Assembly: GCA_965649145.1 (NCBI GenBank)
Contig: CBFGJR010000190.1
Location: 1-25,739 of the forward strand
Direction: 5' to 3'
DNA: 25,739 nucleotides
Source: a candidate division WOR-3 bacterium
GTDB lineage: Bacteria > Hydrothermota > Hydrothermia > Hydrothermales > JAJRUZ01
Positions 6,442-23,153 of the stretch are shown here, in pieces. Made by a program: the position numbers and the translations under genes. Position 1 is the stretch's first letter. Each line of letters opens with the position of its first letter. The notes below the pieces were generated by a model, which was not told the origin of the DNA, did no database searches, and saw only the letters and a program-made list of their open reading frames with translations.

Positions 6442-7656
6442 TTACTCTATAATATCTGTAATAACACCTGCTCCTACCGTTCTTCCACCCTCTCTAATAG
6501 CAAACCTCAACTCCTTTTCCATAGCAACAGGATACATGAGTTCAACCTCAAGATTCACATGGTCTCCAGGCATTACCATTTCCCTTCCCTCCGGAAGTTT
6601 GATTGAACCAGTAACATCTGTTGTTCTGAAATAAAACTGTGGCTTATATCCTGTAAAGAAAGGTGTATGTCTTCCGCCTTCTTCCTTTGTAAGGACATAA
6701 ACCTGTGCTCTGAATTTTGTATGAGGTGTGATTGAACCTGGTTTTGCAAGAACCATTCCCCTCTCAACTTCATCCTTTCCTATACCTCTTAAAAGTACTC
6801 CTACATTATCACCTGCTCTCGCCTCATCAAGAATCTTTCTAAACATTTCAACAGAAGTAGCCACTGTTTTTCTTGTAGGACCAAAACCAACAATCTCTAT
6901 CTCTTCACCCGGCTTTAAAATACCCCTTTCAACTCTACCTGTTACAACTGTTCCTCTCCCTGTAATTGAAAATACATCCTCGATTGCCATTAAAAAGGGT
7001 CTATCAATTTCTCTAACTGGATCAGGAATATAATTGTCCATTGCATCAAGTAATTCCCATATTTTTCCACAGTGTTCACATTCTCTCTTTCCACACCCGC
7101 ACTTCAAAGCATTTAAAGCACTCCCCTTTATTACTGGAACCTGATCCCCTGGAAATTCATACTTTCTCAAAAGATCTCTAACCTCTTCCTCAACAAGATC
7201 AACTATCTCAGGGTCATCAACTGCATCAACTTTGTTTATATATACAACTATATAAGGCACATTTACCTGCCTTGCTAAAAGAACATGCTCTCTTGTCTGA
7301 GGCATCACTGAATCCACAGCTGAAACCACAAGGATTGAGCCATCCATTTGAGCAGCACCTGTTATCATATTTTTAATATAATCATGGTGTCCCGGACAGT
7401 CAATGTGTGCATAATGCCTTTTCTCTGATTCATATTCTACATGGGCAAGGTTAACTGTCAGAATTTTTGTCTCGTCCCTTCTGAAAAGCTTTGCATCAGC
7501 TTTCGCTACCTGATCGTAATCCTGTTCCTGAGCAAGACCATATTTTGCAAGAACTTTTGTAATAGCAGCTGTAAGAGTCGTTTTACCATGGTCAATATGA
7601 CCTATGGTTCCTACATTAACATGAGTCTTTTTTCTTTCAAACTTGGGTTTACTCAT
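6442..7656 (-). CDS. tuf: Elongation factor Tu
   Basis: [53 protein letters not shown]. Confidence 0.99.
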
Positions 7657-7667
7657 TTTTTAAAAAA

Positions 7668-7720
7668 TTTTTGGATGGGAATAGAACCCACTTTGGGGTA
7701 TATTATAAAATCCCCAAAAA
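7668..7720 (-). promoter_or_regulatory. Structured tuf leader: T-loop hairpin (7675-7691) with alternative acceptor-like and upstream hairpin pairings, plus an embedded TATAAT box (7702-7707)
   Basis: Minus strand reads TTTTTGG GGATTTTATAATATACCCCAAA GTGGG TTCTATT CCCAT CCAAAAA TTTTTT. The pairings are read directly from the sequence; function is inferred. Confidence 0.6.
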
Positions 7721-7739
7721 TGAAAATTAAAATAATATT

Positions 7740-9788
7740 TTAATATAAAAATTCTTTTTTTTCAAGTTTTAAAGGTCTAAATGCTTTAACTTTCATCCAC
7801 AAACCTGCTCTGCCCTTAGTATGAGACCTTAAAGCTGTAACATACCCAAAGGTATTTTTTAAGGGCATCTCAGCAATTACCTTTATCCAGTCTGAGTTCT
7901 CTAACATCCCCTTTTCCAGTATAGTGGCTTCCCTCTGCATTAAATCCTGAATAACATTTCCCAAATATTCCTGAGGAACCGTAATTTCCACATAGGAATA
8001 GGGCTCAAGTAAAATAGGTTCCGCACTTTTTATCACTTCCCTACCCGCTTCATGAATGGTTAATCTTAAGCCAAGAGGGGTTATTTTTTCAATATTATAA
8101 ACTTTTTTCAAATTCATTCTCACATTCATCATTGGATAACCCGCTATAATTCCAAAATCAAGAACTTCTTTCATTGAACTCATAGCAATCTCTCTTAATT
8201 CCTCAGAAAAATTTATACTACTATCTATAACTATCTCATTTCTCATAGCCTCCATTATAGGTAAAACTTCAAGTTGAACTTTTCCATACTGGTCTTCCCC
8301 TCCTATATTTTTTTTCACCTCCTTTACAAGTTCCGCTCTCTTTAATATACTCTCTCTATAATGTACCTGGGGTTTTAATGCTCTGAATTCTAATTTATAG
8401 TCCCTCTTCAATCTATCGAGAATGATCTCAAGATGCAGTTCACCCATTCCTGATATTATTATCTGACCTGACTCCTCATCTATTTTTAAACTGAAAGTGG
8501 GGTCCTCTTCAACCATCCATTTTAATCTTTCCTCAATTTTTTTCAAATCTTTGGCTGAAACAGGTTCTATTGCCTGTGAAACAACAGGTTCAGGAAAAAG
8601 CATCTCTTCGTATAATACTGGATGTTCAGAAGAACACAAAGTATCTCCTGTCCTTACATCCTTTGGCCCAACTATCCCAACTATTTCTCCACAAAGGGCT
8701 TCCTTTATTGCATTCCGTCTATTAGCATGAAGTCTGTATAACCTCTGAACTCTTATAAGTTCTTTTGTTCTTGGATTATAGATTTTTGAATTCTGGGTAA
8801 TTTTTCCTGAATATATTCTCAAATAGCAAAGTTTTCCCATATCTTCAAAGATTTGAACCTTAAATACAACTCCACTGAAATGATCCTCAGGTGAAGGATA
8901 TCTTGAAATTTCCTTACGGGTTAAAGGGTCAATTCCTCTAATTTCTCCCCTATCTATCGGAGAAGGTAAATATAGACATATCGCATCTATTAAAGGCTGA
9001 ATACCTTTATTTCTTAATGCAGAACCTATTAAGAGAGGCAAAAATCTTTTTCCAAACACACCTTTTCTTATAGCATTATTAATTTTAACTGGATCAGGAA
9101 TTCCTTTTTCATAATAATCCTCTGCAATACTTTCGTCAATTTCCGAAAGTATTATAATCATATCCTCATAAAATTTCTTTGCTTCTTCAGGCATCTCATC
9201 TATCTCATAAACTGAGAATTGAGTTCCTAATTCATCTTTATCCCATAAAATTTTTTTATAATCAACAAAATGGTATACACCTAAAAAAAAAGATTCAATT
9301 CCAACTGGCCATTCAAGTAAAAGAGGCTTTATATTAAATTTCTTTTCTATCTGATCCAGAACTCTTAAATGATTCGCACCCTGTCTATCCATTTTATTAA
9401 TAAAGGCAATTCTTGGAACATTAAACTTTTCAGCCTGTCTCCATATTGTTTCTGACTGGGGTTCAACACCTTCCACAGCAGAAAAAATTATAACAAGACC
9501 ATCAAGAATTCTCAAAGACCTTTCAACTTCCGCGGTAAAATCCACATGACCTGGAGTATCAACTATATGTATTAAATAATCCTTCCACTCACAAAAAGTA
9601 GCAGCTGCCTGGATTGTTATACCCCTTTCTTTTTCCTGTCTCATATAATCCATTGTCGCTGTCCCTTCATCTACTTCACCCATCCTATGTATCCTTTGAG
9701 TATAAAAAAGAATTCGTTCTGTTGTTGTAGTTTTCCCGGCATCTATGTGGGCAGCAAAACCAATATTCCTCAATTTTGTTAAATCCAT
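7740..9788 (-). CDS. fusA: Elongation factor G family protein in the str operon, with a strongly diverged domain IV
   Basis: AHIDAGKTTTTERIL, ERGITI, DTPGHVDF, NKMD, SGMGELHL; located between rpsG and tuf. Confidence 0.92.
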   Translation of the reverse strand: MDLTKLRNIGFAAHIDAGKTTTTERILFYTQRIHRMGEVDEGTATMDYMRQEKERGITIQAAATFCEWKDYLIHIVDTPGHVDFTAEVERSLRILDGLVIIFSAVEGVEPQSETIWRQAEKFNVPRIAFINKMDRQGANHLRVLDQIEKKFNIKPLLLEWPVGIESFFLGVYHFVDYKKILWDKDELGTQFSVYEIDEMPEEAKKFYEDMIIILSEIDESIAEDYYEKGIPDPVKINNAIRKGVFGKRFLPLLIGSALRNKGIQPLIDAICLYLPSPIDRGEIRGIDPLTRKEISRYPSPEDHFSGVVFKVQIFEDMGKLCYLRIYSGKITQNSKIYNPRTKELIRVQRLYRLHANRRNAIKEALCGEIVGIVGPKDVRTGDTLCSSEHPVLYEEMLFPEPVVSQAIEPVSAKDLKKIEERLKWMVEEDPTFSLKIDEESGQIIISGMGELHLEIILDRLKRDYKLEFRALKPQVHYRESILKRAELVKEVKKNIGGEDQYGKVQLEVLPIMEAMRNEIVIDSSINFSEELREIAMSSMKEVLDFGIIAGYPMMNVRMNLKKVYNIEKITPLGLRLTIHEAGREVIKSAEPILLEPYSYVEITVPQEYLGNVIQDLMQREATILEKGMLENSDWIKVIAEMPLKNTFGYVTALRSHTKGRAGLWMKVKAFRPLKLEKKEFLY

Positions 9789-9870
9789 AGGTTTAATAAT
9801 TTATCTTAGAAGGATTTTAATATAAAATTATTTTCCTCTGATTCCTTACCTCTACTCCCATTTCCAAAAT

Positions 9871-10720
<850 letters not shown>

Positions 10721-10733
10721 TAAATGATAGTTT

Positions 10734-10766
10734 ATAAGATGGGGATTAGAACCCAATTTATCTTAT
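10734..10766 (-). promoter_or_regulatory. T-loop hairpin in the rpsL leader
   Basis: ATAAGAT-AAATT-GGG TTCTAAT CCC-C-ATCTTAT; ATAAGAT/ATCTTAT is a perfect 7-bp pair. Confidence 0.6.
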
Positions 10767-10768
10767 TA

Positions 10769-10797
10769 ATTATAATCTCAAAAATTAAAAAATTCAA
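10769..10797 (-). promoter_or_regulatory. Sigma70-type promoter of the str/S10 operon
   Basis: TTGAAT (10797-10792), 17 nt spacer, TATAAT (10774-10769). Confidence 0.75.
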
Positions 10798-10895
10798 ACT
10801 GCTCAAAAATATACAACTTTTAAAATCAAAAAGTTCAAATTCCTGAAAGTAAAAGAAAATAAGAAGCTTGAAAAGATACTTTTGAAAATAAATGT

Positions 10896-10924
10896 TTGAC
10901 TTAAGAATAAGAATTTCATAAAAT
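10896..10924 (+). promoter_or_regulatory. Sigma70-type promoter of the HEPN-MNT pair, likely giving a leaderless mRNA
   Basis: TTGACT (10896-10901), 17 nt spacer, TAAAAT (10919-10924); ATG follows 7 nt later at 10932 with no SD. Confidence 0.7.
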
Positions 10925-10931
10925 TTGAGTG

Positions 10932-11336
10932 ATGAACCCGAAAGAAATTGAATTTTTAAAACAGAGAAGTAAAGAATTTTATGAAAATGCCCTCAGTTTA
11001 TTTAAAGAAAAAAAATATAATCTCGCCGCTTTTAACATTGAACAATCTTGTCAACTTTATTTGAAATACTTAATAGGTAAAAAAATAGGGGAATGGCCAA
11101 AAACTCATTATTTGGACGAATTAATAGAGGAATTATCGGATGTTTATGAGAGAAAAGAAATTTTAGAATATTTTAAGAACAAGGAACTATTTTTCCAAAA
11201 TTTAACAGATGCTTATTTTACTTCAAGATATCATCCCAAAAATTTTACTCTAAATTTAACTCAACAACTAATCACAAATTATCAAAATTTTATCAAATTC
11301 TTAGAGGAGAGTTTAGGTGATAAATTTTTAAAATGA
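10932..11336 (+). CDS. HEPN domain protein (COG2250-like family common in thermophilic archaea)
   Basis: All-helical pattern with AAFNIEQSCQLYLK, PKTHYLDEL and AYFTSRY; ATGA overlap with a minimal nucleotidyltransferase gene. GTG 10929 is an alternative start. Confidence 0.85.
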   Translation: MNPKEIEFLKQRSKEFYENALSLFKEKKYNLAAFNIEQSCQLYLKYLIGKKIGEWPKTHYLDELIEELSDVYERKEILEYFKNKELFFQNLTDAYFTSRYHPKNFTLNLTQQLITNYQNFIKFLEESLGDKFLK

Positions 11337-11689
11337 AAACCTTAATTCAATTAAAAAAGAAAATTTGGCAGAAAAGAAAAAGATACTTTGAAAATTATCT
11401 TTTTTGGAGCAGAAAAATTAAACAAAAAACCATAGAAATTTTAGGAGAAGATGTTAAAGTTTTAGTTTTCGGCTCTATTGTTAAAGGAGAATGGGGACCA
11501 AACAGTGATATTGACATTCTAATTATTTCAGAAAAACTTTCTAAAAACTGGGAAGAAAATACCTGGATTAAAACAGAAATTAAAAAATCTATTGACCTTT
11601 TCTCTCCGTTTCAGATTCATTTAGCCACACCACAGGAATACCAAAACTGGTATCAAAAATTCATAAAAGGAGATTTTAAAGAGATTTAA
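11333..11689 (+). CDS. Minimal nucleotidyltransferase (MNT; Pol-beta superfamily)
   Basis: FGS-X10-DxD motif (FGSIVKGEWGPNSDIDILII); 118 aa; translationally coupled to the HEPN gene. Confidence 0.9.
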   Translation: MKTLIQLKKKIWQKRKRYFENYLFWSRKIKQKTIEILGEDVKVLVFGSIVKGEWGPNSDIDILIISEKLSKNWEENTWIKTEIKKSIDLFSPFQIHLATPQEYQNWYQKFIKGDFKEI

Positions 11690-11756
11690 ACTCTAAATAA
11701 TATCAGGGCAAGGACAAACCTATTTTATCCTAAATACTATGGGATTAAACATATTA

Positions 11757-11785
11757 TTGAAAAGATAAATTTCTTCTATTATAAT
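11757..11785 (+). promoter_or_regulatory. Sigma70-type promoter for tRNA-Thr and the tsaC-purM unit
   Basis: TTGAAA (11757-11762), 17 nt spacer, TATAAT (11780-11785). Confidence 0.75.
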
Positions 11786-11793
11786 AAAGAAAT

Positions 11794-11866
11794 GCCCGTG
11801 TAGCTCAGGCGGTAGAGCACTTCCTTGGTAAGGAAGAGGCCGCCGGTTCGAGTCCGGCCGCGGGCT
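11794..11866 (+). tRNA. tRNA-Thr(GGT); CCA end not encoded
   Basis: Cloverleaf: acceptor GCCCGTG/CGCGGGC, D arm GCTC/GAGC, anticodon arm CTTCC-TTGGTAA-GGAAG, T arm GCCGG-TTCGAGT-CCGGC, discriminator T followed by TTT. Confidence 0.97.
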
Positions 11867-11878
11867 TTTCAAATAATC

Positions 11879-12961
11879 TTGGAAATCAAAATACCTCAAA
11901 AAAGCTTCAAAAGAGCAGTTGAAATTCTTAAAAAGGGAGGAGTTATAATAGTTCCCACAGATACAGTTTCTGGATTTGTTACTCCCTACTGGTCTTATGA
12001 GGGTATAAATCGTATTTATAAAATAAAAAGAAGAGAAAAGGGAAAAGTACTTGGGCTTTTTATTTCTGATAATAAAGATGTAAAAAAATTTGCAAGAAAT
12101 ATTACAGAAACAAGAAAAAGAATATTCCATAATCTGTGGCCAGGTCAACTTACTTTACTCTTTAAAAGTAAAAATAACCTTCCTGAGTATCTGGTTCATA
12201 AGGAAAAAAAAACAGTCGCACTCAGAATACCCTCTCATCCACTTATTTTAAAACTAATTAATGAAGTTGGACCCCTTGTTCAGACATCTGTCAATATTTC
12301 AGGTGAGAAGGAAATTACAAAATATAGTGAAATTTATGAAAAATTTGGTAAGTATGTGGACTATGTATATCCCCAGGATTCCTATGGAAATATTTCATCT
12401 ACAATTCTTGATGTCTCAAAGTATCCCTTTAAAATGATAAGAAAAGGACCAGTTGGAATAAGTCAGATTGAAAATGTCCTTTTAAAAAAAATTAAAATCT
12501 CAAAAGATATAAAAACAAATATTCTTTTCGTATGCACCGGGAACACCTGCAGATCACCTATGGCAATGGGAATTCTCTATTCACTTTTAGATAAGGAATT
12601 AAAAGATTTAGTAAATGTAAAATCAGCAGGTCTTTTAACCTATGATGGGCTTCCTATCTCAGAAAATACTTTAAAAGTTCTTCAAAAATTTTATAATGTA
12701 AATCTATCCTATTACAGAACAAAAAAATTAAGAAGGGAAGACCTTGACTGGGCTGATTTTATTTATGTAATGGAAAGGAAACACTTAAGGGAAATTCAAA
12801 AAATGGGATACTATGAAAAGGTAAAGTTACTTTATCCCGGTGAAAACCCTTCCGATATACCTGACCCATTTGGTAAAGATTTTAAATTCTATGTGGATGT
12901 TTCAAAAATTATAGAAGAAAGTATTAAAAAAATTCTTAAGGAAATTAAATACAGGTACTAA
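11879..12961 (+). CDS. tsaC: Fusion of L-threonylcarbamoyladenylate synthase (TsaC/YrdC/Sua5 domain) and a low-molecular-weight phosphatase (YwlE/arginine-phosphatase-like)
   Basis: N-terminal IVPTDTVSG, KIKRR, VALRIP and TSVNISG; C-terminal FVCTGNTCRSPMA and DIPDPFG. The track start (11825) lies inside the tRNA, so the first plausible start is TTG 11879; the exact start is uncertain. Confidence 0.85.
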   Translation: MEIKIPQKSFKRAVEILKKGGVIIVPTDTVSGFVTPYWSYEGINRIYKIKRREKGKVLGLFISDNKDVKKFARNITETRKRIFHNLWPGQLTLLFKSKNNLPEYLVHKEKKTVALRIPSHPLILKLINEVGPLVQTSVNISGEKEITKYSEIYEKFGKYVDYVYPQDSYGNISSTILDVSKYPFKMIRKGPVGISQIENVLLKKIKISKDIKTNILFVCTGNTCRSPMAMGILYSLLDKELKDLVNVKSAGLLTYDGLPISENTLKVLQKFYNVNLSYYRTKKLRREDLDWADFIYVMERKHLREIQKMGYYEKVKLLYPGENPSDIPDPFGKDFKFYVDVSKIIEESIKKILKEIKYRY

Positions 12962-13926
12962 TGAAATATAAAGATGCGGGAGTAGATCTAAAGAAGGCTG
13001 AATCTGTATCAAAAATATTCAAAATTTTAACAAACCAGGAAGAAAGGTTCTCAGGTATTTATGACCTTGGTGAATTTTTTCTTGCCGCTACCTGTGATGG
13101 AGTAGGAACCAAAACTCAGGTTGCAAGATTAACAAAATATTATGAAATTTTAGGTGAAGATATTGTTAATCACTGTGTTAATGACCTTTTATGCCAGGGA
13201 GCAAAACCTTTATTTTTTCTTGATTACATAGCCTCATCAAAACTTGATTTAAAAATAGTAAAAAAAATTGCAAAGGGGATATTAAAGGCTTTGAAAGAAA
13301 ACGGTAATATACCCCTTTTAGGTGGTGAAACAGCTGAAATGCCTGATATATATAGTAAAGAAGAATGGGATATTGTTGGATTTTGTGTAGGTATTATTAA
13401 AAAGGAAAACCTGCTCCCAAAAGAAATAAAAATTGGTGATATTCTCATAGGTTTCCCTTCAACAGGACTTCATACCAACGGATACTCACTTGCAAGAAAA
13501 ATTCTTTTAAAAAAATATAAATTAGAAAAAAAATTTAATGGATATACTCTTAAAGATTTATTGCTTAAACCGCATAAAAGTTATTTCAATATGCTCTATC
13601 CATTAATTGAAAAAAATCTAATAAAGGGACTTGCACATATAACAGGTGGAGGAATTGAAGGAAATTTAAAAAGAATTTTAAGAGGTGGACTTGGATTTGA
13701 AATAGATATAAGAGAAATTGATAAACCATTAATTTTTGATATTATAGAAATTGAGGGAAATGTGCCAAGAGACGAAATGTTAAAGGTCTTCAATATGGGA
13801 ATAGGTATGATAGCTGTAATAGATAGTAAAGATTTTGAAACTGTTAGAAGCACTTTAATTGATAAAAAAGCCAAATTCTACCTTATTGGAGAAATCATAA
13901 AAGGTAAAAGAATAATAATTTCTTAG
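12961..13926 (+). CDS. purM: Phosphoribosylformylglycinamidine cyclo-ligase (AIR synthetase)
   Basis: YKDAGVD, DGVGTK, GGETAEMP, STGLHTNGYSL, AHITGGG, FNMGIGM; TAATG overlap with the upstream gene. Confidence 0.96.
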   Translation: MKYKDAGVDLKKAESVSKIFKILTNQEERFSGIYDLGEFFLAATCDGVGTKTQVARLTKYYEILGEDIVNHCVNDLLCQGAKPLFFLDYIASSKLDLKIVKKIAKGILKALKENGNIPLLGGETAEMPDIYSKEEWDIVGFCVGIIKKENLLPKEIKIGDILIGFPSTGLHTNGYSLARKILLKKYKLEKKFNGYTLKDLLLKPHKSYFNMLYPLIEKNLIKGLAHITGGGIEGNLKRILRGGLGFEIDIREIDKPLIFDIIEIEGNVPRDEMLKVFNMGIGMIAVIDSKDFETVRSTLIDKKAKFYLIGEIIKGKRIIIS

Positions 13927-13956
13927 AATCCCTTTATTATTCAAAATTCAGGGTTT

Positions 13957-13986
13957 TTGAAAATAAAAAGGCATTTGCCTTATAAT
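13957..13986 (+). promoter_or_regulatory. Putative sigma70 promoter of gyrA
   Basis: TTGAAA (13957-13962), 18 nt spacer, TATAAT (13981-13986); AAGGAGG SD about 10 nt before ATG 14061. Confidence 0.6.
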
Positions 13987-14060
13987 TTTTTATGAAAAAA
14001 CTTCTAAAAATTTTTTATTTTTTTAATCTCATAAATAACCCAAAAAGGAGGAAAAAATAA

Positions 14061-16484
14061 ATGTCTGAAAGAATCATAGGTGCTCCAATAGAAGACGAGA
14101 TGACTATAAGCTATATAGATTATGCAATGAGTGTCATTGTTGGAAGAGCTCTTCCTGATGTGAGAGATGGCTTGAAACCTGTTCACAGGAGAATTCTTTA
14201 TGCTATGTACGAAGCAGGATTACTCCCTACAAGACCTTTCAAAAAAAGTGCAACAGTTGTAGGTGATGTTCTCGGTAAATACCACCCTCATGGTGATATG
14301 GCAGTATATGATGCTCTTGTTAGAATGGCTCAGGATTTTTCACTGAGATACCCTCTAATTGAAGGACAGGGTAATTTTGGGTCAATAGATGGTGACCCAC
14401 CCGCTGCATACAGATACACCGAGGCAAGACTTTCAAAAATATCAATGGAAATGCTAAGAGATATAGATAAGGATACAGTGGATTTTGTACCCAATTTTGA
14501 TGGAAGATTAAAAGAACCTCTCGTTTTACCTTCCCTTTTACCTAACTTAATAGTAAATGGTTCAACAGGAATTGCTGTTGGTATGTCAACAAATATACCG
14601 CCACATAATCTAACTGAAACCGTTGATGCACTTTTATATTTAATAGATAATCCCGATTGTAAAGATGAAGAAATCTTTGAAATAATAAAGGGACCTGATT
14701 TTCCCACAGGAGGAATTATACTCGGAAAAAAGGGAATAATTGATTATTTTAAAACAGGAAGAGGAACAGTCACTGTAAGAGCAAGATACTACATTGAAGA
14801 AAAAGGGAGAAAAAAAATTATCTTTACTGAAATACCCTATCTTGTAAATAAATCCAATTTACTTGAAAGAATAGCAGAACTTGTTAGGGAGAAAAAGATT
14901 GAAGGTATACAGGATTTAAGGGATGAGTCAGACAGAGAAGGCTTAAGAATTGTTATCGAACTTAAAAAGGGGATTTCTGAGAAATTTGTTTTAAACCAGC
15001 TTTTTAAATATACCCAGCTTCAGGACCGTTTTGGAGTAATAATGCTTGCACTCTCAGATAATGAGCCGAGGGTGCTTTCTTTAAGAGAAATTCTTAACCA
15101 TTATTTAAAGCACAGGGAAGAAGTTACAAGAAGAAAAACCGAATTTTTACTTAAGAAAGCTCTTGAAAGGGCACATATACTTGAGGGACTTAAGATTGCT
15201 CTTAAAGATATAGACAGAGTAATAGAATTAATTAAGAAATCAAAGGATCCAAAGGAGGCAAAAGATAAATTAATGAAAGAATTTAAATTGAGTGAGATTC
15301 AGGCGCAGGCTATACTGGATATGAAATTACAGACCCTTACAAAACTTGAGATGTCAAAAATTGAAGAAGAGTATGAAAAATTAATCAAGGAAATTGAGAG
15401 ACTGAGAGGTATCCTGGAGAATAAAGGATTATTATTCCAGGAAATAAAGAAGGAGTTAATTGAAATAAAAGAAAAATACGGGGACAATAGGAGAACTGAT
15501 ATTGAGGGAGAAGAGCCTGAGGAGATTGATATTGAAAAATTAATAAAAAAGGAAAAGATATTAATTTTGCTTTCAAAAAATGGTTATATAAAAAGAGTCC
15601 AGGGTTCTTATTTAAAAACTCAAACAAGAGGAACACAGGGGCAAAAAGGACTTCTGCTTGATGAAGATGATTTTCCTGAAGATGTCTTCTATGCCTTTTC
15701 TCATGATTATGTTATATTCGTTTCAAATAAAGGTAAGGTTTATTCCTTAAAAGCTTATGAAATTCCTGAAAGTGGTTTAAGAGGAAAAGGTAAGCCAGTA
15801 AACCAAATCTTAAATTTATCAGAAAATGAAAAAATTGTTGATATGATTCCTGTTTCAGAATTTAAGAAAAGTCAATATTTATTCCTTATAACAAAAAAGG
15901 GAATAATAAAAAAAACAAGTTTAGAACTTTTTAAAAACGCAGGAAAAAGAGGAATTATTGCTCAGGGTTTAAAGGAAGGGGATGAAACCATTGATGGAAT
16001 TCTTGTTGGAGATGAAGATGACATTATACTTTTAAAATCTAATGGTCTTGCATCACGAATAAAATCTAAGATTGTAAGACCTATGGGAAGAACAGGCTGT
16101 GGTGTAATTGGTATAAATACCAGGGATGCAGACTGTGTCTCAGGCACTCTCATAAAGGATGATTCTTCACTTCTTGTTGTAACAGAAAAAGGTTATGGTA
16201 AGAGATTCAATCCTAAGGAGATACAGGCAAAGGGGAGGGGGACAAAGGGGATGATTGTCCAGAAGATAAATGAAAAAACAGGAAAAGCAATATGGATAAG
16301 AAGTTTTTCTTCAAAGGACCATCTTGTTCTCTTAACAAGTTCTTCAAAACTTTTAAGACAGAAATCAGAAGATATACCTTTGCTTTCAAGGTCCACAAAA
16401 GGTGTAAAATTAATAAAGGTTAAAGAGGATGAAAAAATTGTTGGATGTGCAAGAATTCCCTATGAGGAGGAAATAGATGTTTAA
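14061..16484 (+). CDS. gyrA: DNA gyrase subunit A (type IIA topoisomerase A subunit with a beta-pinwheel CTD)
   Basis: [23 protein letters not shown], catalytic [24 protein letters not shown], GyrA-box-like QTRGTQG and six CTD blade repeats. Confidence 0.93.
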
Positions 16485-17097
16485 TTTTACTATTTTTTTA
16501 ATTTTTTCAATAAATCCAGTAAAAGGGGCTTTTTTATCTTTCTTAATTCCGGGACTTGGAGAAAAAATCTATGGAAATAATAGAGAGTTTTATATGTTGA
16601 TAACAGGGGAGCTTTCCTTTTTATCTTTTTATTTTTATGATTACAAAACAAAAAGGGGAATAAGGGAAGACTACAAAATATTCGCTTTTCAAAAGGCAGG
16701 TGCTTATCCCGGTACTGATGATGAAAATTACTGGAATGCTGTGGAAAACTACTATAATTATGATATTTATTATGAACACCTTTTAAGAGAAGCAAGGGAG
16801 CTTTATCCTGATAATCCATTGGTCTGGGAGGATTATGCAAGGGAAAATTCTCCTCCTTACAGGTGGGCATGGAAAGATACAACTTCCTGGGATGAATTTT
16901 TGCATAGAAGAGAAAGGGAAAGAAAAATTGAATCAAGGATGAAACTCTTTCAGGGTTTTATAATTTCCTATCATATTTTTTCTGCCATCTACACATTCAT
17001 ACATCTAAAATTAAAAGAAAAAAATAAATTTGAACTTAAAGGAGAATTTAATCCTGAAATGAATAAAATGGGTATAAAATTAATTTATAGATTTTAA
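16477..17097 (+). CDS. Hypothetical membrane/exported protein (resembles the FCB-group DUF5683-like 'S..LPG.G..Y' family)
   Basis: Hydrophobic N-terminus, [16 protein letters not shown], two further hydrophobic segments; 8-nt overlap with gyrA. Confidence 0.5.
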
Positions 17098-17099
17098 AA

Positions 17100-17621
17100 T
17101 TGTATTTTATAAAAAGGGAGGAGTGGTTAAAAAAGGGTCTTACCGGTAGAATAAATAAGGTTTTAAAACATCCCTTCTATGTTATACATCACACAGCAAC
17201 ATTTCAGACGGAATATAAAGGAAATATAAACTATTTAGACAGGATGCATAAAAAAAGGGGATTTTTATTAATAGGTTATCACTTTATAATAGGGGTTGAT
17301 GGTAAAATTTTTGAGGGAAGGAAGATAGGAGAAGAGGGTGCTCATGTCAAAAGGTTCAATGATTCAATCGGTGTTGCGCTTATTGGAAATTTTGAAGAAG
17401 AAAATATTAAAAAGGAACAACTTGAATCACTTTTAAAACTCATGTTTTTTTTAAATAATAACTTACTTATTAACAGATTTACCTTTCATTTTCTTTTAAA
17501 TGAAAATACCTTATGTGGAAGATGGATTTATGGAAAAATAATAAAAAACAAAAATAAAAAATTTTTTAAATTTCCAGAGGATTTATTTTATAATTTATTG
17601 TGGGTTCAAACCCCTGAATAA
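17100..17621 (+). CDS. N-acetylmuramoyl-L-alanine amidase, Amidase_2/PGRP/T7-lysozyme type
   Basis: VIHHTA, IGYHFIIGVDGKIFEGR, GAHV, SIGVALIGNF, and later His (FHF) and Cys (TLCG) as candidate Zn ligands. TTG start is uncertain. Confidence 0.85.
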   Translation: MYFIKREEWLKKGLTGRINKVLKHPFYVIHHTATFQTEYKGNINYLDRMHKKRGFLLIGYHFIIGVDGKIFEGRKIGEEGAHVKRFNDSIGVALIGNFEEENIKKEQLESLLKLMFFLNNNLLINRFTFHFLLNENTLCGRWIYGKIIKNKNKKFFKFPEDLFYNLLWVQTPE

Positions 17622-17622
17622 A
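17589..17622 (+). promoter_or_regulatory. TATAAT box followed by a T-loop hairpin in the mdh leader
   Basis: TATAAT at 17589-17594; TTTATT-GT-GGG TTCAAAC CCC-TG-AATAAA at 17594-17622; SD AAGGAGG then ATG 17641. Confidence 0.6.
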
Positions 17623-17640
17623 AACAAGGAGGGAACTTAA

Positions 17641-18573
17641 ATGAAAGAAAAAGTCTATATAATTGGAGCCGGTTTTGTAGGAGCAGAGTGTGCTAACGAA
17701 CTTGCAAGAAAAGATTTCTGTGATATAGTTCTCATTGACATTCTTGAAGGAATTCCCCAGGGAAAATCCCTTGATATGACCCATGCAAACCCAATAAGAT
17801 ACATATCACCCAGTATAAAGGGACAGAATAATTATGATGGTATTGAAGAAGCAAAAGTTGTTGTTATAACAGCGGGTGTCCCAAGGAAGCCTGGAATGAC
17901 AAGGGAAGAATTGCTTGATACCAATTTCAATATTATGAAAAATGTAATTGGTGAAATAAAGAAAAAAAATAAAAATGCAATTTTGATAGTTGTTACAAAT
18001 CCCCTTGATGCTATGACCTATGCTGCCTATAAGTTATCTGGTTTTGAAAGGGAAAGGGTAATTGGAATGGCAGGTGTTCTTGATTCAACAAGATTCAGAG
18101 CTTTTCTTGCAATGGAACTTGGTGTTGCCTATGAAGATGTTTCAGCAATAACTCTTGGAACTCATGGAGATTTAATGGTTCCCTTACCAAAATATGCTAC
18201 CGTAGGGGGAATCCCAGTAAATCATCTTTTACCAAAGGAAAAGATAGATGCAATTGTTGATAGAACAAGGAAAGCAGGAACTGAGATAGTTTCCCTTTTA
18301 AAAACAGGAAGTGCTTATTATGCACCTGGTGTTTCAACAGCAATAATGGTGGAATCAATAATTAAGGATAAAAAAAGAGTTCTTTCGGCATCAGTTTTGT
18401 TAAAAGGAGAATACGGAATAAAAGATATATTTGTTGGAGTTCCTGTAGTTTTAGGTGAAAATGGTGTAGAAAAAGTTATTGAGATGAAACTTGAACCGGA
18501 TGAACTTAATGCCCTAAGGAAATCAGCTGAACATGTTAAAAAAATGCAGGAGGAAATAGATAGGAAGCTCTAA
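17641..18573 (+). CDS. mdh: Malate dehydrogenase (LDH-like type)
   Basis: IIGAGFVG Rossmann motif; ITAGVPRKPGMTREELL with the Arg that specifies malate over lactate; VTNPLD; LDSTRF; GTHGD. Confidence 0.95.
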   Translation: MKEKVYIIGAGFVGAECANELARKDFCDIVLIDILEGIPQGKSLDMTHANPIRYISPSIKGQNNYDGIEEAKVVVITAGVPRKPGMTREELLDTNFNIMKNVIGEIKKKNKNAILIVVTNPLDAMTYAAYKLSGFERERVIGMAGVLDSTRFRAFLAMELGVAYEDVSAITLGTHGDLMVPLPKYATVGGIPVNHLLPKEKIDAIVDRTRKAGTEIVSLLKTGSAYYAPGVSTAIMVESIIKDKKRVLSASVLLKGEYGIKDIFVGVPVVLGENGVEKVIEMKLEPDELNALRKSAEHVKKMQEEIDRKL

Positions 18574-18606
18574 AATTTTTTTCAGGCTGCGCTAAGAGAA
18601 AGCTCT

Positions 18607-19428
18607 TTAAACTAAATTACTTGCAAGACCTATCCAGGTTCTTAAAGCATAAAAAGCTTCAATTATGTCTTCTGCTTCATAACTTAAAGTTCTCGGTGAA
18701 ACTCTTTTTGTTTTAGGCATAATCTCAGCAATATCAGTCATGCCTGTATTTATAAAATCTGCTTCTATCCTTACTTTTCCATTTATTTTTAAAGGTTTTA
18801 TAACTTTATTTTTATATTTATCAATCGCCCCTTTTATGTTTAAATTTATTTCCTTTTCAATTTTAGGAAAAGAAAAATGTATTGCCGAGAATCTGCTTAT
18901 TGCCTCTTTGGTAATAACATACTCAATCTCGGGAATAAGTGTCCTTGCTTCCTTCACAACTTCATTATCCCCTGTTAAAAAAATTACTGGAACATCAAAA
19001 TCTCCTGCAACATAAGCATTTATAGCAAATTCACCTACAGGTAAATCATTTATTCTTACTTCATAGATAACTCTTCCAAAATAAGTATGGTCAAGAACCC
19101 CTTTATTTCCGGCTCTTGAGTGGTAACCTAAAAAAATTGCCGCATCACTTTTTTCAACACCTTCAACCATTGAGAGTCTCTTTAAATTTCCTGTGATTAA
19201 CCTCACATTTTCAGGGATTTCATCAAACAGTATATTCGTCATGTCTCCGTGAGAATCATTGACAATAATTTCTTCTACCCCATTTTTATTTAAAGAATTG
19301 ATAACACATAAAAGATGATTTGTCATCCATCCCCTTGCCTTCTCGTAATCTTTTCCTTCTCTTCTTGTATGTTCTAAGGATACAACACCTTCTATTCCCT
19401 CAATATCAATTGATATAAAAACTTTCAT
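18607..19428 (-). CDS. dppA: D-aminopeptidase DppA (peptidase M55)
   Basis: MKVFISIDIEG, VNDSHG, GYHSRAG and LDHTY metal-binding motifs. Confidence 0.93.
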   Translation of the reverse strand: MKVFISIDIEGIEGVVSLEHTRREGKDYEKARGWMTNHLLCVINSLNKNGVEEIIVNDSHGDMTNILFDEIPENVRLITGNLKRLSMVEGVEKSDAAIFLGYHSRAGNKGVLDHTYFGRVIYEVRINDLPVGEFAINAYVAGDFDVPVIFLTGDNEVVKEARTLIPEIEYVITKEAISRFSAIHFSFPKIEKEINLNIKGAIDKYKNKVIKPLKINGKVRIEADFINTGMTDIAEIMPKTKRVSPRTLSYEAEDIIEAFYALRTWIGLASNLV

Positions 19429-19605
19429 TCACTTAAATTTCAAAAGAAGTCCAAGGGGAATTAAAACTAAGTATCCAAGAACCATAAAGATAACTGAAAA
19501 GGTTTTATCACCAAGAAAAAGAAAAATAAAACCTATAAGGGCTGAAACCAAACCTGTTAATAAAAGGATATAATTTTCTTTTTTGTAAGGTAAAGTATTT
19601 TTCAT
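19429..19605 (-). CDS. 58-aa two-TM membrane protein, DUF3098-like; missing from the ORF track
   Basis: Manual translation MKNTLPYKKENYILLLTGLVSALIGFIFLFLGDKTFSVIFMVLGYLVLIPLGLLLKFK*; its TGA abuts the dppA ATG; TAAAAT lies 6 nt upstream of the ATG. Confidence 0.75.
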   Translation of the reverse strand: MKNTLPYKKENYILLLTGLVSALIGFIFLFLGDKTFSVIFMVLGYLVLIPLGLLLKFK

Positions 19606-19637
19606 TTTTTAATTTTACTAAAAAAGAAAATCAATTA

Positions 19638-21266
19638 TCAATATTCAAAGGGAACAAAATTTTTGTTTTTTATTTTATAAAATTTAACATTTTCTATAGA
19701 TCTTCCAAAAAGATAAAATTTGTAAGCACCCTTAAAGTAAATCAGGTTGTTTAAAAAACTTAAAAAGGAATAGGAGCCTCTAATATCTTTCTCAAAAGCA
19801 TAATTAAGAATATTACCAATATCATAGCCAATATAAGCTGCCTCACCTGGATAAAACCCATATTTTGTTTTAAATTCAGATAAAAATTTCTCAGAAACTC
19901 CTCTATCCCATATTCCAGAACTTGCAAAAATCACCCTATCTTCCACATACTTATTTGATTTGAGAGCAAAATCCTCTGTTGTAAATTTTCCTGTTGATAT
20001 AATTTTTGATTTCAATCCTTTAAAAACAATCTGGGAAGAAAGTGAAAGAAGAGATTCTTCTGTTCCTGCTGGGAAAATAATGATATCAGGTCCCAATGTA
20101 TCTTTAAAAAATTTTACCATTAAGTCAATTTTCCTCTGAAAGTCAGGCGAATCAGGTGAAAACATTATATAAATAATATCGCTTCTTTCTTTGAAGAAAT
20201 CATATAAAAAGGATAATATACTTTCACCCTCTTCAGTTCTTGGTACAAAAATAGAAATCCTTTGAAAGTTATTTGGAATTATAAACCTTTCCAGAATTGC
20301 TCTTATCTCCTGGTATGTAGAATTAGAAAGAGTCACAATATTTTCAGCAAACTCACAAGCTTTTATATAGGAAAGTGCAGGAACTATAAAGACTTTATCC
20401 TTTTTCCTGGCAAAATAGGGAAGGGCTGTATAAAGATTTTTACTTAAAATAGGACCAACTAAAATCATAAAATCAGAAGAATATAAAAGGTGATTTTCAA
20501 TTAATTTAAAAGTTTGAAAGGGGTCCCCTTTTGTATCAAAAAAACTGTAATCTTTATATTTGAAGGAAAGTTCAAAACCTTTAAGAAAATCCTTACCAAG
20601 AGAACTATCAGGACCGGTTAGTGGAAGATAAAGAAAAATAGAACCTCTTTTTTCTCTTATAAAAGGAATCTCAGTTTTTTTTCTTGTAAATATTTTTTCT
20701 ATTTCTTTTGTTCTTTCGTGTTCAGGATAATATTCTTTTAAAATATAAAAAATTTCTTCCTGTGCCTTTATATCCCCATCTCCTCTTGCTTTTTCAAAGG
20801 CAATGGAGAGCATTTCCGGGTATATCCTTTTATTTTGAAGTTTATTAAGATTTTTTAAAATTTCTCTCAATGAAAGGGATTCTGAAAGTTTAAGTATTTT
20901 CCCCTCTGATTCTCTATAATAGGGGGATTCTCCTTCACTAACAATTTCAATATAAGTTTCAAAGGCTCTAAGTAAAAAATTTTTTTTCTCATAACTTTTT
21001 GCAAGCATATAGAAGACTTGAACTTTATAATTACTTTCAGGATAAGTATTTAAAAATTTGTTTGAATAAACTATAACTGAATCAGGGTTATTTAGATAAT
21101 AATAAACATATATTAAAAGGTAAAGAGTTTTTTCATTTTTTTCTCCTTCTTTTAATAACACCTTTAACTCTCTTTCAGCATCTTTCAGCTTATTATTTTT
21201 TATAAGTTCAATTATTTTTACATCTGTCTGATTTAAAAGAAATAAAAGAATAAAAAATTTAAACAT
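19638..21266 (-). CDS. Exported TPR plus periplasmic-binding-protein type 1 protein (LpoA/LppC-like)
   Basis: Hydrophobic N-terminus; TPR-like helices (FLNTYPES, YMLAKSYEK, KEYYPEH); then LYLPLTGPDSSLG, DTKGDP, LVGPILS and AYIGYD of the type-1 periplasmic fold. Confidence 0.7.
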   Translation of the reverse strand: MFKFFILLFLLNQTDVKIIELIKNNKLKDAERELKVLLKEGEKNEKTLYLLIYVYYYLNNPDSVIVYSNKFLNTYPESNYKVQVFYMLAKSYEKKNFLLRAFETYIEIVSEGESPYYRESEGKILKLSESLSLREILKNLNKLQNKRIYPEMLSIAFEKARGDGDIKAQEEIFYILKEYYPEHERTKEIEKIFTRKKTEIPFIREKRGSIFLYLPLTGPDSSLGKDFLKGFELSFKYKDYSFFDTKGDPFQTFKLIENHLLYSSDFMILVGPILSKNLYTALPYFARKKDKVFIVPALSYIKACEFAENIVTLSNSTYQEIRAILERFIIPNNFQRISIFVPRTEEGESILSFLYDFFKERSDIIYIMFSPDSPDFQRKIDLMVKFFKDTLGPDIIIFPAGTEESLLSLSSQIVFKGLKSKIISTGKFTTEDFALKSNKYVEDRVIFASSGIWDRGVSEKFLSEFKTKYGFYPGEAAYIGYDIGNILNYAFEKDIRGSYSFLSFLNNLIYFKGAYKFYLFGRSIENVKFYKIKNKNFVPFEY

Positions 21267-21271
21267 ATTTA

Positions 21272-21277
21272 ATTATA
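21272..21277 (-). promoter_or_regulatory. -10 box immediately upstream of the LpoA-like gene (leaderless arrangement)
   Basis: TATAAT-TAAAT-ATG(21266); no SD. Confidence 0.5.
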
Positions 21278-21293
21278 TGAATAAGGATTAATT

Positions 21294-21325
21294 AAAATAA
21301 AACCCCTCCCATATCGGGAGGGGTT
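21294..21325 (-). terminator. Rho-independent terminator after the 573-aa secreted protein gene
   Basis: Perfect 10-bp stem AACCCCTCCC-GATAT-GGGAGGGGTT (21325-21301) followed by TTATTTT. Confidence 0.85.
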
Positions 21326-21351
21326 CTTAAAAATTGTAATTTACTCTTTAC

Positions 21352-23073
21352 TTATTCAGAAACAAGAAATTTGAATGTCCCTTCAGATGAACCCTTGTAT
21401 CTCAAGAAGTATACACCAGATTTCAAATTCTTAAACACAACCTCATTATTTCCAGAATTAACAAAAAGAGCCCTGGTATCAAGCTTCCTTCCGTTCTTAT
21501 CATAAAGTTCAAAAACCATTTTCCCATTGAAAGGTGAAATAAATCTCACTGTTCCATTTTTATAAATATTACCCACAAAACTGAGCCCCTTTCCTGTAAC
21601 AAAAGATTTTGAACCTTCCTCAACACCCATAAGAGGATAATAACCTGTGAGAATATAAGTCTGATCTATAGCGCCTAACCTGTATATACCATAATGAATA
21701 TCATAACCAGCCATTGCTCCATCCCATCCCCTTACAACATTAAAGAGAAGCCAAACATTAGAGCCTCCAAATACATGCTTTACCGTATGAACCTGATGCT
21801 CTATCTTGTCATCAGTAGGTTGATTAACCTCATCCCTTGTAATATTTATTGGCGCACTCCATGTCGCTCCTCCATCTGTTGAATACTTCACATAAATATC
21901 TGTCCAACCATACCTTGAACCATTCACATAATCAAAAGTATGATAATCAACATAGGTAACATAAAAAACATTATGAACATGGTCTATCGTTAATTCACAG
22001 TTCACAAACTGAATGTCCTCATCAGGGTCAATGACCGTATATGTCGCTGTTGGAGTCACAAGATATAAACCATTACCCGATACAAAAGTATCCGCTGTTC
22101 CAAAAATTATTGGATTAGTAAACAAACAGGTTGTTGAAATAAGAGCAACAGGTGTTGATGCATCTAAAAGCGCAAAATCCCAGTAGTTTGTCCACCAGAA
22201 TGCATCAACAATATGCGTTGAACCATCATAACCAAAAGTAAATGTATCAATAGGTATTTGTATATTAAGACCTATTCTTTGCCAGCTTACTCCATCATCA
22301 TATGAGACAAAAACAGAATCAGGTAAAACAAGGGCTGCATAAGTTCCATTAAGATAATCCATATTCCAAACTTCACCAGGATGACCAGGTATCACAGTTG
22401 CGGGAGGGTCTGGGTTAACAAACCCAAATTTCCACCACCATTGGGAGAAATAGTTATTATCAGCTCCTATCAACCAGTTCACATAGTTTGCAGGGTCATT
22501 TGAACCATGTGCAAAACTCTGAAAACCAACAAAAGGAGTAGTTTGATAATAATACTTTAAAATATTTCCCTGACCAAGGTCACCATTTGAAGGAACAGTT
22601 GCTATTGAAGCACCATAACCAGGAGAAACATTTGCATAACTCGCTATAAATGTATCACAGTCACCCAACCATGGACCAACCTGTGGATATCTACCGCCTC
22701 CATCATCATTATAAGGCCATACCCTATTCCATGTGGTACCACCATCTTTTGTAAATGTAAGAGCAAGCCATCCTGAACCTGGATAATTGGGATTATCAGA
22801 TAATCTTCTATATGTGAAAAATACACAGGATTGGTCGGGTGATGTATTTATAGGCTTTTCAGCAGTGTAAAGGGTTGAATACTGATTTGGCATTGTATCA
22901 ACATAGCTGATAGTCAATGTGGTGTAGGTGGGAGGAGACGCCAGATAGTAATCAAGGGTGCTTACAGCATCCTCATCTATAATCATATGAGTTCTTGCAG
23001 CAGGATTTATATAACCTGCAAGGAGGAATGTGGTTAAAAACATTCCTCCTAACATTTTTTTGAGGTAACTCAT
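21352..23073 (-). CDS. Secreted Asp-box/BNR (sialidase-like propeller) protein with a T9SS type-A-like C-terminal sorting domain
   Basis: Signal-peptide-like N-terminus; three Asp-boxes (TKDGGTTW, SYDDGVSW, STDGGATW); tail GVEE...ELYDKNGRKL...LKSGVYFLRY...KFLV. Confidence 0.7.
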   Translation of the reverse strand: MSYLKKMLGGMFLTTFLLAGYINPAARTHMIIDEDAVSTLDYYLASPPTYTTLTISYVDTMPNQYSTLYTAEKPINTSPDQSCVFFTYRRLSDNPNYPGSGWLALTFTKDGGTTWNRVWPYNDDGGGRYPQVGPWLGDCDTFIASYANVSPGYGASIATVPSNGDLGQGNILKYYYQTTPFVGFQSFAHGSNDPANYVNWLIGADNNYFSQWWWKFGFVNPDPPATVIPGHPGEVWNMDYLNGTYAALVLPDSVFVSYDDGVSWQRIGLNIQIPIDTFTFGYDGSTHIVDAFWWTNYWDFALLDASTPVALISTTCLFTNPIIFGTADTFVSGNGLYLVTPTATYTVIDPDEDIQFVNCELTIDHVHNVFYVTYVDYHTFDYVNGSRYGWTDIYVKYSTDGGATWSAPINITRDEVNQPTDDKIEHQVHTVKHVFGGSNVWLLFNVVRGWDGAMAGYDIHYGIYRLGAIDQTYILTGYYPLMGVEEGSKSFVTGKGLSFVGNIYKNGTVRFISPFNGKMVFELYDKNGRKLDTRALFVNSGNNEVVFKNLKSGVYFLRYKGSSEGTFKFLVSE

Positions 23074-23092
23074 TTGAAACCTCCTTTTTTAT

Positions 23093-23153
23093 AGGGAATT
23101 GAACCCTTTTTATTTTATGCTTAATTATAATCAATCATTCATTAATTCTTCAA
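23093..23153 (-). promoter_or_regulatory. Promoter plus T-loop hairpin upstream of the 573-aa gene
   Basis: TTGAAG (23153-23148), 18 nt spacer, TATAAT (23129-23124); AGGG TTCAATT CCCT (23107-23093); SD AAGGAGG. Confidence 0.6.

Follow-up and report, generated by a model that had tools for sequence, protein, structure and literature searches.

A tRNA T-loop-like element at a preferred distance ahead of start codons in one bacterial family

A short element with the signature of a tRNA T-loop stands, most often by about 20 nucleotides (nt), ahead of the start codons of about 7% of the genes in a candidate division WOR-3 bacterium (Hydrothermota; Hydrothermales), and all six genomes of its family in our survey carry it in many copies. 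The element was described in an initial annotation of contig CBFGJR010000190.1 (C190), a stretch of 25,739 nt that we refer to as the window and that belongs to a 1.78-Mb assembly (GCA_965649145.1) with 31% G+C. Four copies were recorded there, ahead of tuf, rpsL, mdh, and the gene for a 573-amino-acid (aa) protein.

The T-loop signature and its genomic extent

Within the window, the 13-mer pattern GGGTTCNNNNCCC has exactly four matches, a number never reached in the dinucleotide shuffles that served as the control (mean, 0.13). Genome-wide, the same pattern occurs 77 times, and nearly all of the 47 copies outside tRNA genes lie just ahead of a start codon. When the outer pair was relaxed, AGG...CCT proved to be as frequent as GGG...CCC, which reduces the true core to GGTTC-N-A-N-Y-CC. 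Outside tRNAs this sequence occurs 142 times, against 6.5 expected from composition and 9 from the reversed pattern, so that the rarity by chance claimed for the window extends to the whole genome. A genome-wide scan had been proposed in the initial annotation, and it reveals strong enrichment in leaders: 108 of the 142 copies are on the sense strand and end 14 to 36 nt before the start codon of an open reading frame (ORF) of at least 50 codons. Of the other 34, about 20 fall within coding sequence and several stand ahead of genes that are short or mis-called; one gene behind such a core copy is probably that for L32, as read from its first residues. The distance from core to start codon has its mode at 19 to 23 nt, a range that holds 69 of 121 copies. 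The flanks of the copies are A/T-rich, not tRNA-like, and without homology to one another.

Loop positions that had been left free in the search follow the T-loop as well. Position 5 of the loop is A in 116 of the 121 copies, corresponding to A58, and position 7 is a pyrimidine in 110, corresponding to Y60. With the loop wholly free, TTC-starting loops dominate among the GG-N7-CC sites found at leader positions. The signature of the element is that of a T-loop, with U54, U55, C56, A58, Y60, and the G53:C61 pair, and the consensus first read from four copies is thus kept across the genome. Position 57 is A in 93 copies, T in 21, C in 5, and G in 2, and it is a purine in 47 of the genome's 48 tRNAs.

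The four copies in the window can be described individually. In the tuf (EF-Tu) leader, the hairpin GGG-TTCTATT-CCC (7677 to 7689, minus strand) is followed by a 20-nt A/T spacer without a Shine-Dalgarno (SD) sequence (7676 to 7657) and by the ATG at 7656. A TATAAT box (7702 to 7707, minus strand) lies 12 nt upstream, and with the predicted transcription start near 7695 the hairpin would begin at about +6. The rpsL (S12) copy, GGG-TTCTAAT-CCC (10742 to 10754, minus strand), precedes a 21-nt spacer that also has no SD (10741 to 10721) and the ATG at 10720. A promoter scan identified a sigma-70-type promoter for this gene, TTGAAT-17-TATAAT (10769 to 10797, minus strand), with its TATAAT 14 nt before the hairpin and a predicted start near 10762, about 8 nt ahead of it. 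The mdh copy, GGG-TTCAAAC-CCC (17602 to 17614, plus strand), is separated from the ATG at 17641 by a 26-nt spacer that holds the SD AAGGAGGG. Its TATAAT box (17589 to 17594, plus strand) is 7 nt upstream, a position from which the transcript should start at or beside the first G of the hairpin, and the same arrangement of TATAAT and hairpin is found in orthologous leaders. The fourth copy, GGG-TTCAATT-CCC (23094 to 23106, minus strand), stands before the gene for the 573-aa protein, with a TATAAT box 17 nt upstream (23124 to 23129, minus strand) and a 20-nt spacer that contains the SD AAGGAGG ahead of the ATG at 23073. Coordinates, strands, and quoted sequences agree with the initial annotation, as do the distances from 13-mer to ATG (20, 21, 26, and 20 nt), the placing of the TATAAT boxes 7 to 17 nt upstream (here 12, 14, 7, and 17 nt), and the absence of the 13-mer from every coding sequence in the window.

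In the window, only tRNA-Thr passes an Rfam gathering score, and nothing is matched at the four sites even at E values up to 5, in keeping with the earlier statement that the element belongs to no named RNA family. ARAGORN places no tRNA at these sites. A tRNA gene, or a 5-bp T-stem within a cloverleaf, was rejected on this ground and because the stem has only two invariant and one or two covarying pairs (see below). A terminator scan of positions 7600 to 11000 found none at the tuf or rpsL hairpins, which ruled out an intrinsic terminator (a G+C-rich stem of at least 5 pairs followed by a T run) at these two genes.

The tuf promoter region has a feature of its own. An inverted repeat, TTGGGGA/CCCCAA, surrounds the TATAAT box (7692 to 7716, minus strand) and reads GTGGGG/CCCCAC in two further genomes (G001 and G004). 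The difference is compensatory, and the repeat may fold into a hairpin between the fusA and tuf cistrons, in competition with the internal promoter.

The 11-mer core adds two matches in the window, one in the T-arm of tRNA-Thr (11845 to 11855) and one an antisense copy in fusA (9460 to 9470). The tRNA-Thr gene (11794 to 11881, plus strand) is the sole tRNA gene of the window, and its T-arm is followed after 23 nt by an ORF that starts with TTG, a spacing shared with the mimic. Several further tRNA genes in the genome precede protein genes at such a distance, and one of these junctions is kept in G005, a genome from the second genus of the family. The leader element could have evolved from such junctions between tRNA and protein genes.

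In a random sample of 30 motif-led genes, the identified products include proteins of replication, division, translation, and folding (DnaN, FtsZ, ribosomal proteins S1 and S15, AlaRS, and GroES), metabolic enzymes (GAPDH, FBP aldolase/phosphatase, thiolase, Hbd, acyl-CoA dehydrogenase, and a Thi4-family protein), a Nuo/Mrp subunit, PilC, a PilB-type ATPase, a response regulator, secreted proteins with T9SS tails, and several proteins without a family. The T9SS sorting domain of one motif-led protein is compatible with the lineage assignment. The suggestion that the element marks a regulon of abundant genes did not hold up, given about 7% of genes, a very mixed range of functions, and no difference in codon bias. 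A highly expressed regulon was likewise rejected, since a codon adaptation index built on the ribosomal genes of the window is alike in motif-led and other genes.

Distribution across the phylum and conservation in orthologs

We scanned the phylum (272 genomes from 43 families and 110 genera) with a discriminating 17-mer pattern, which in the host genome matches 59 sites outside tRNAs and one tRNA where about one match is expected by chance. Each of the six genomes of the window's family holds 47 to 85 copies, which upholds the earlier proposal of a lineage-wide cis element. At most 12 copies were found in 265 of the 266 other genomes; the exception, G178, has 20. A second lineage with the element was considered and rejected, as the copies in G178 are one dispersed repeat and the 12 copies in another genome (G081) look random.

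The repeat in G178, which belongs to another family, comprises 17 identical copies of TTGGGTTCTAATCCCAA (L040 to L068) within a longer dispersed repeat upstream of paralogous genes. It looks like a multi-copy, possibly mobile, gene family with a T-loop-like leader hairpin. The similar 17-mer in this repeat is the one observation in line with the view that the family's element is itself chance, tRNA-gene debris, or a mobile repeat. We consider the probability of this extremely small, as it is contradicted by a 20-fold excess over chance, by A/T-rich flanks that are neither tRNA-like nor homologous to one another, and by the retention of orthologous positions across genera.

Conservation of the element can be followed gene by gene. 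In all six family genomes, rpsL carries the motif and no SD, with a TATAAT kept 10 to 14 nt before the motif; the 24 relatives outside the family for which there is a locus all have a strong SD and no motif. The motif is also kept in all six family genomes ahead of tuf, where the flanks have diverged around the core, and ahead of groES. At mdh, the consensus is kept in five of the six, and G005 has GGTCCGAATCC. In G005, rpsG (L007:1094-1116) has lost its SD and has instead the motif and a 22-nt A/T spacer before its ATG; an SD is present at rpsG in all other genomes examined, and the locus lies inside the str operon.

A wider comparison, of the host genome with 380 kb of G005, yielded 173 ortholog pairs with alignable starts. 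All 12 of the motif-led genes in this comparison keep the motif, 11 as true copies and one as a real tRNA. In these motif-led pairs SD status is kept, flanks and spacers are not alignable, and spacing differs by 0 to 7 nt. Retention of this kind suggests that the element is under selection across genera despite its diverged flanks.

An 82%-identical ortholog of the 573-aa protein is encoded on a hot-spring contig, JAWBNO010000009.1 (L001), and has tGGGTTCAAATCCCa at the same leader position. This contig was binned into a metagenome-assembled genome of 'Candidatus Aenigmatarchaeota' and is probably a misbinned contig of this bacterial family.

Placement, pairing, and possible mode of action

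Upstream neighbors were analyzed for 106 copies. Of these, 64 follow a gene on the same strand, 25 of them within 10 nt and 40 within 30 nt of its stop codon, and some overlap the last codons of that gene. Copies at operon junctions include those of ftsZ, rpsO, a Nuo/Mrp membrane-subunit gene, and, in G005, rpsG. Among 57 promoter-proximal copies, −10-like hexamers peak 6 to 11 nt before the core (25, against 6.9 expected from control genes), and full −35/−10 promoters peak likewise (12, against 2.3 expected). From this pile-up, the hairpin is predicted to lie around positions +1 to +5 of the transcript. The initial description as a 5′-end element therefore stands for the promoter-proximal copies and fails as an exclusive rule, with 40 of 106 copies lying so close behind an upstream stop.

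For 116 copies, we also recorded the presence of an SD. No SD word was found in 69, and in these the median distance from core to ATG is 21 nt, with 44 of the 69 at 19 to 22 nt. The spacers without an SD consist of 52% A, 36% T, 4.6% G, and 7.3% C, compared with about 14% G and 14% C in intergenic DNA, and have A at position −3 in 54 of 69. Where an SD is present (47 of 116), the median distance from core to ATG is 25 nt, and the SD mostly starts 10 to 13 nt past the core.

Two other genes in the window bear on how starts are marked in this genome. Neither an SD nor the T-loop motif precedes the ATG of fusA (7740 to 9788), and the same is true in the family genomes (L003 to L007), so a large share of genes would start without either signal. 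A gene for a 542-aa protein (19638 to 21266) has a TATAAT just 5 nt ahead of its ATG (box region 21264 to 21283, minus strand), and its mRNA is a candidate leaderless transcript that may represent a third start type in the genome.

A structural alignment of 48 copies from three genomes was used to examine pairing. The two G-C closing pairs are invariant in all 48. The first pair outward is formed in 81% of copies (GC 18, AU 14, GU 4, CG 2, UA 1, unpaired 9), and the second is AU in 24, UA in 4, GU in 3, UG in 2, GC in 1, and unpaired in 14. The covariation score is 0.279, compared with 0.142 ± 0.025 in shuffles; it was reached by none of 500 shuffles and exceeds the scores of all slid registers. 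Across the genome, 86 of 121 copies form the first flank pair, compared with 60.6 ± 3.5 for shuffles. Flank pairs 3 to 8 are at chance level in the same 121 copies, and pair 4:20 is formed in 44% of the 48. The acceptor-like extended stem noted earlier for tuf and rpsL is consequently not a general feature.

The 16S rRNA (62 to 64% G+C) and tRNAs (62%) are rich in G+C for a 31% genome, which marks the organism as a thermophile. The hairpin as first described needs correcting in its stem, which comprises only two invariant G-C pairs and one or two covarying ones and is predicted to be mostly unfolded at thermophilic temperatures. The leader hairpins have two to four pairs, compared with about 10 bp in the stem of a genuine terminator in the window. 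Selection is therefore on sequence and shape, not on stability. The combination of a stem that is weak for a thermophile with conserved loop letters argues for a trans-acting reader. The terminator just mentioned lies at 21290 to 21352 (minus strand), directly after the 573-aa gene, with the stem AACCCCTCCC/GGGAGGGGTT followed by a T run, and explains weak Rfam matches to Phe_leader, SmY, and rnk at 21253 to 21396.

Does the element act as RNA or as DNA? A role as a −35 or −10 box was rejected, as the spacers downstream of the element show no −10-like positional signal and an SD can lie downstream of it. In the 47 genes with such an SD, the transcription start has to lie ahead of that SD. The distance to the promoter is variable, the distance to the ATG is tight, and copies occur inside operons and ahead of SD sequences; the element therefore appears to be transcribed and to work with the downstream start codon. 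One alternative is that the 11 bp serve as DNA, as an operator or a promoter-proximal site bound by a sigma factor or another DNA-binding protein peculiar to the family, and resemble a T-loop by coincidence. Such a site would fit with the overlap between the element and the predicted start-site region of many promoters, with the marginal thermodynamics of the hairpin, and with a covarying pair that avoids G:T as much as A:C. It is nonetheless decidedly improbable, given the spacing that is tight to the start codon and variable to the −10 box, the missing −10-like signal downstream, and the SD found past the element in 47 genes, at 10 to 13 nt in about half of them. Copies in tight operon junctions, even within the end of the upstream coding sequence, also count against a DNA-level site, as do the nine positions that match the T-loop consensus and the compensatory CG and UA variants of the flank pair.

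If the element is transcribed, it may be a processing signal, in which the T-loop hairpin directs an endonuclease, either an enzyme of tRNA processing or a different RNase, to cut polycistronic RNA beside it and leaves each downstream cistron with a hairpin-protected 5′ end. Many copies stand directly after stop codons inside operons, promoter-proximal copies are predicted to be 5′-terminal, and real tRNA genes precede protein genes at the same distance, including the junction kept in G005; each of these would suit such a signal. A minihelix substrate for RNase P or RNase Z, with about 12 bp of stacked acceptor and T stem, was rejected because the outer pairs are at chance level. Without an acceptor-like helix of this kind, with no RCCA after the hairpin, and with copies at primary 5′ ends that need no cutting, processing is quite improbable as the function.

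Candidate readers were sought in 41 genomes. TruB_N is present as a single copy in all 41 and GCD14/TrmI in 38, the host included, so that the latter is not family-specific; stand-alone tRNA_bind proteins are scattered among relatives and are not family-specific either. Among 19 16S rRNA sequences there are no family-diagnostic columns. The 16S 3′ tail is the canonical GGATCACCTCCTTT, identical in family and sister-family genomes, and the element is not complementary to it.

The resident T-arm enzymes nevertheless suggest a further alternative, in which the hairpins are substrates of TruB (pseudouridine 55), TrmI (m1A58), or a U54 methylase and modification or binding is itself the function. 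In its conserved letters the element matches the GUUCNANNC consensus exactly, and the host genome has genes for both TruB and TrmI. The leaders contain the sequence that TruB needs, GUUCNANNC in the loop with a stem of at least 2 to 3 bp, and in vitro the Escherichia coli enzyme modifies a hairpin of this type with a 3-bp stem at 0.3 times the tRNA rate (PMC13492117). For the GUUCRA target of TrmI or TRMT6/61A-type enzymes, R57 is present in 95 of 121 copies, and the genome has a gene of the GCD14 family. On the other hand, the same enzymes are found in all of the related families, which are without the element, the preferred distance to the start codon is left without a reason, and bacterial TruB binds short hairpins weakly and has known targets in tRNAs only (PMC13492117). 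On this evidence we regard modification as quite unlikely to be the function. The modification, processing, and DNA-operator explanations each leave at least one of four features unexplained: that the element is spaced to the ATG, is confined to one family, has no acceptor-like helix, and occurs inside operons.

The interpretation that we favor, and to which we give an even chance, is that of a transcribed T-loop-mimic module that is held by a T-loop-recognizing factor and acts in cis on the downstream cistron. The module would be 11 to 13 nt of RNA, G53-U54-U55-C56-N-A58-N-Y60-C61, with two invariant G-C pairs and one or two variable pairs. It would sit at the extreme 5′ end of monocistronic leaders or, in operons, right behind the preceding stop codon, and an unstructured, G/C-poor spacer of about 20 nt would link it to the start codon. 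A factor that recognizes the T-loop shape, which might be a tRNA T-arm enzyme, another protein, or the ribosome, would bind and hold the hairpin. Once bound, the hairpin would delimit a ribosome landing pad on its upstream side, determine how far away the AUG lies, and protect the 5′ end or upstream boundary of the downstream cistron. Action at the RNA level, binding by a factor, and an effect on translation initiation or mRNA survival are thus the putative parts of this mechanism. The peaked spacing and the two exchanges of SD for motif may point towards translation initiation, and the predicted 5′-terminal position may point towards mRNA protection.

Several observations weigh against this interpretation. 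SD state flips in 18% of ordinary ortholog pairs, so the swaps at rpsL and rpsG could be coincidence. The covarying pair avoids G:T (5, against about 14.6 expected) like A:C (14, against about 27.7 expected), and covariation alone therefore cannot tell RNA from DNA. The predicted energies of the hairpins at 37°C (−4 to −6 kcal/mol) do not improve on those of shuffles, and at 65°C, 67% of the hairpins are predicted to be unfolded. Motif-led genes do not differ from the rest of the genome in codon bias (P = 0.33), and no family-specific reader was found among TruB, TrmI, the tRNA_bind proteins, and 16S rRNA. That the element is transcribed, we infer from promoter geometry only. An SD precedes 47 of 116 motif-led genes (41%) and 77 of 161 other genes with ortholog-checked starts (48%), frequencies similar enough that the motif is no general replacement of the SD, a role that we rejected on these figures. 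A related proposal, in which the T-loop hairpin would be a general SD-independent signal that recruits ribosomes or positions the start site, evolved by copying the tRNA T-loop and read by the ribosome or by a dedicated T-loop-binding factor, we judge to be unlikely.

Significance and comparison with known systems

The choice of translation starts in bacteria is usually attributed to SD pairing, to unstructured A-rich leaders, or to leaderless 5′ ends. A T-loop copy phased to more than 100 start codons across a family would be a new kind of start-site or mRNA-survival signal. Alternatively, these would be the first bacterial mRNAs that systematically engage tRNA T-arm enzymes, as the targets of eukaryotic TRUB1 and TRMT6/61A do. 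A literature search by motif strings and by topics of T-loops, leaders, and translation found no published description of the element. The sister families without the element, with orthologs that have an SD in one lineage and a T-loop in the other, provide a natural experiment, and the probable phylum has a cultured member (PMC12285271). When gene starts are predicted in these genomes, the element should be allowed for.

The closest likeness is to the tRNA T-arm itself (positions 49 to 65). The two share the 7-nt loop U54-U55-C56-N57-A58-N59-Y60 closed by G53:C61 and G52:C62, and the commonest variant of the element, GGTTCAAATCC, is also the commonest T-arm sequence of the genome's own tRNAs. 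The element differs in that its stem has two to four pairs rather than five, it has no D-loop partner, and it sits in mRNA leaders outside tRNAs; in addition, 26 of 121 copies have U or C at position 57, compared with 1 of 48 tRNAs. The mRNA targets of eukaryotic TRUB1/Pus4 (GUUCNANNC) and TRMT6/61A (GUUCRA) likewise carry the consensus in a short stem-loop (PMC13492117, PMC5340967). Those targets, however, are scattered, lie mostly in coding regions, and keep no set distance from start codons.

Mimicry of tRNA is familiar in the control of mRNA from the thrS operator, T-box partners, viral tRNA-like structures, and the intergenic-region internal ribosome entry site, all of them single, large, and gene specific. 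Like these systems, the element would place part of the tRNA shape on an mRNA to engage the translation apparatus; it is instead a minimal 11-nt module that precedes more than 100 unrelated genes. The 5′-terminal stabilizers of the ompA type depend on the stability of the stem and not on the sequence of the loop. The promoter-proximal hairpins resemble them in lying, as judged from −10 boxes, a few nucleotides from the predicted mRNA 5′ end. They differ in their weak stem and conserved loop, and many copies of the element are operon internal.

In its spacers, which are A-rich with A at −3, the element resembles the A-rich, Kozak-like leaders of Bacteroidota. The SD sequence provides the final comparison. 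The element stands about 20 nt upstream of the start codon rather than 5 to 9 nt, lacks complementarity to the 16S tail, and co-occurs with an SD in 41% of cases. It nonetheless shares with the SD the properties of a short sense-strand signal held at a tight distance from the start, at first and internal cistrons alike, and in two genes, rpsL and rpsG, it stands where relatives have an SD.

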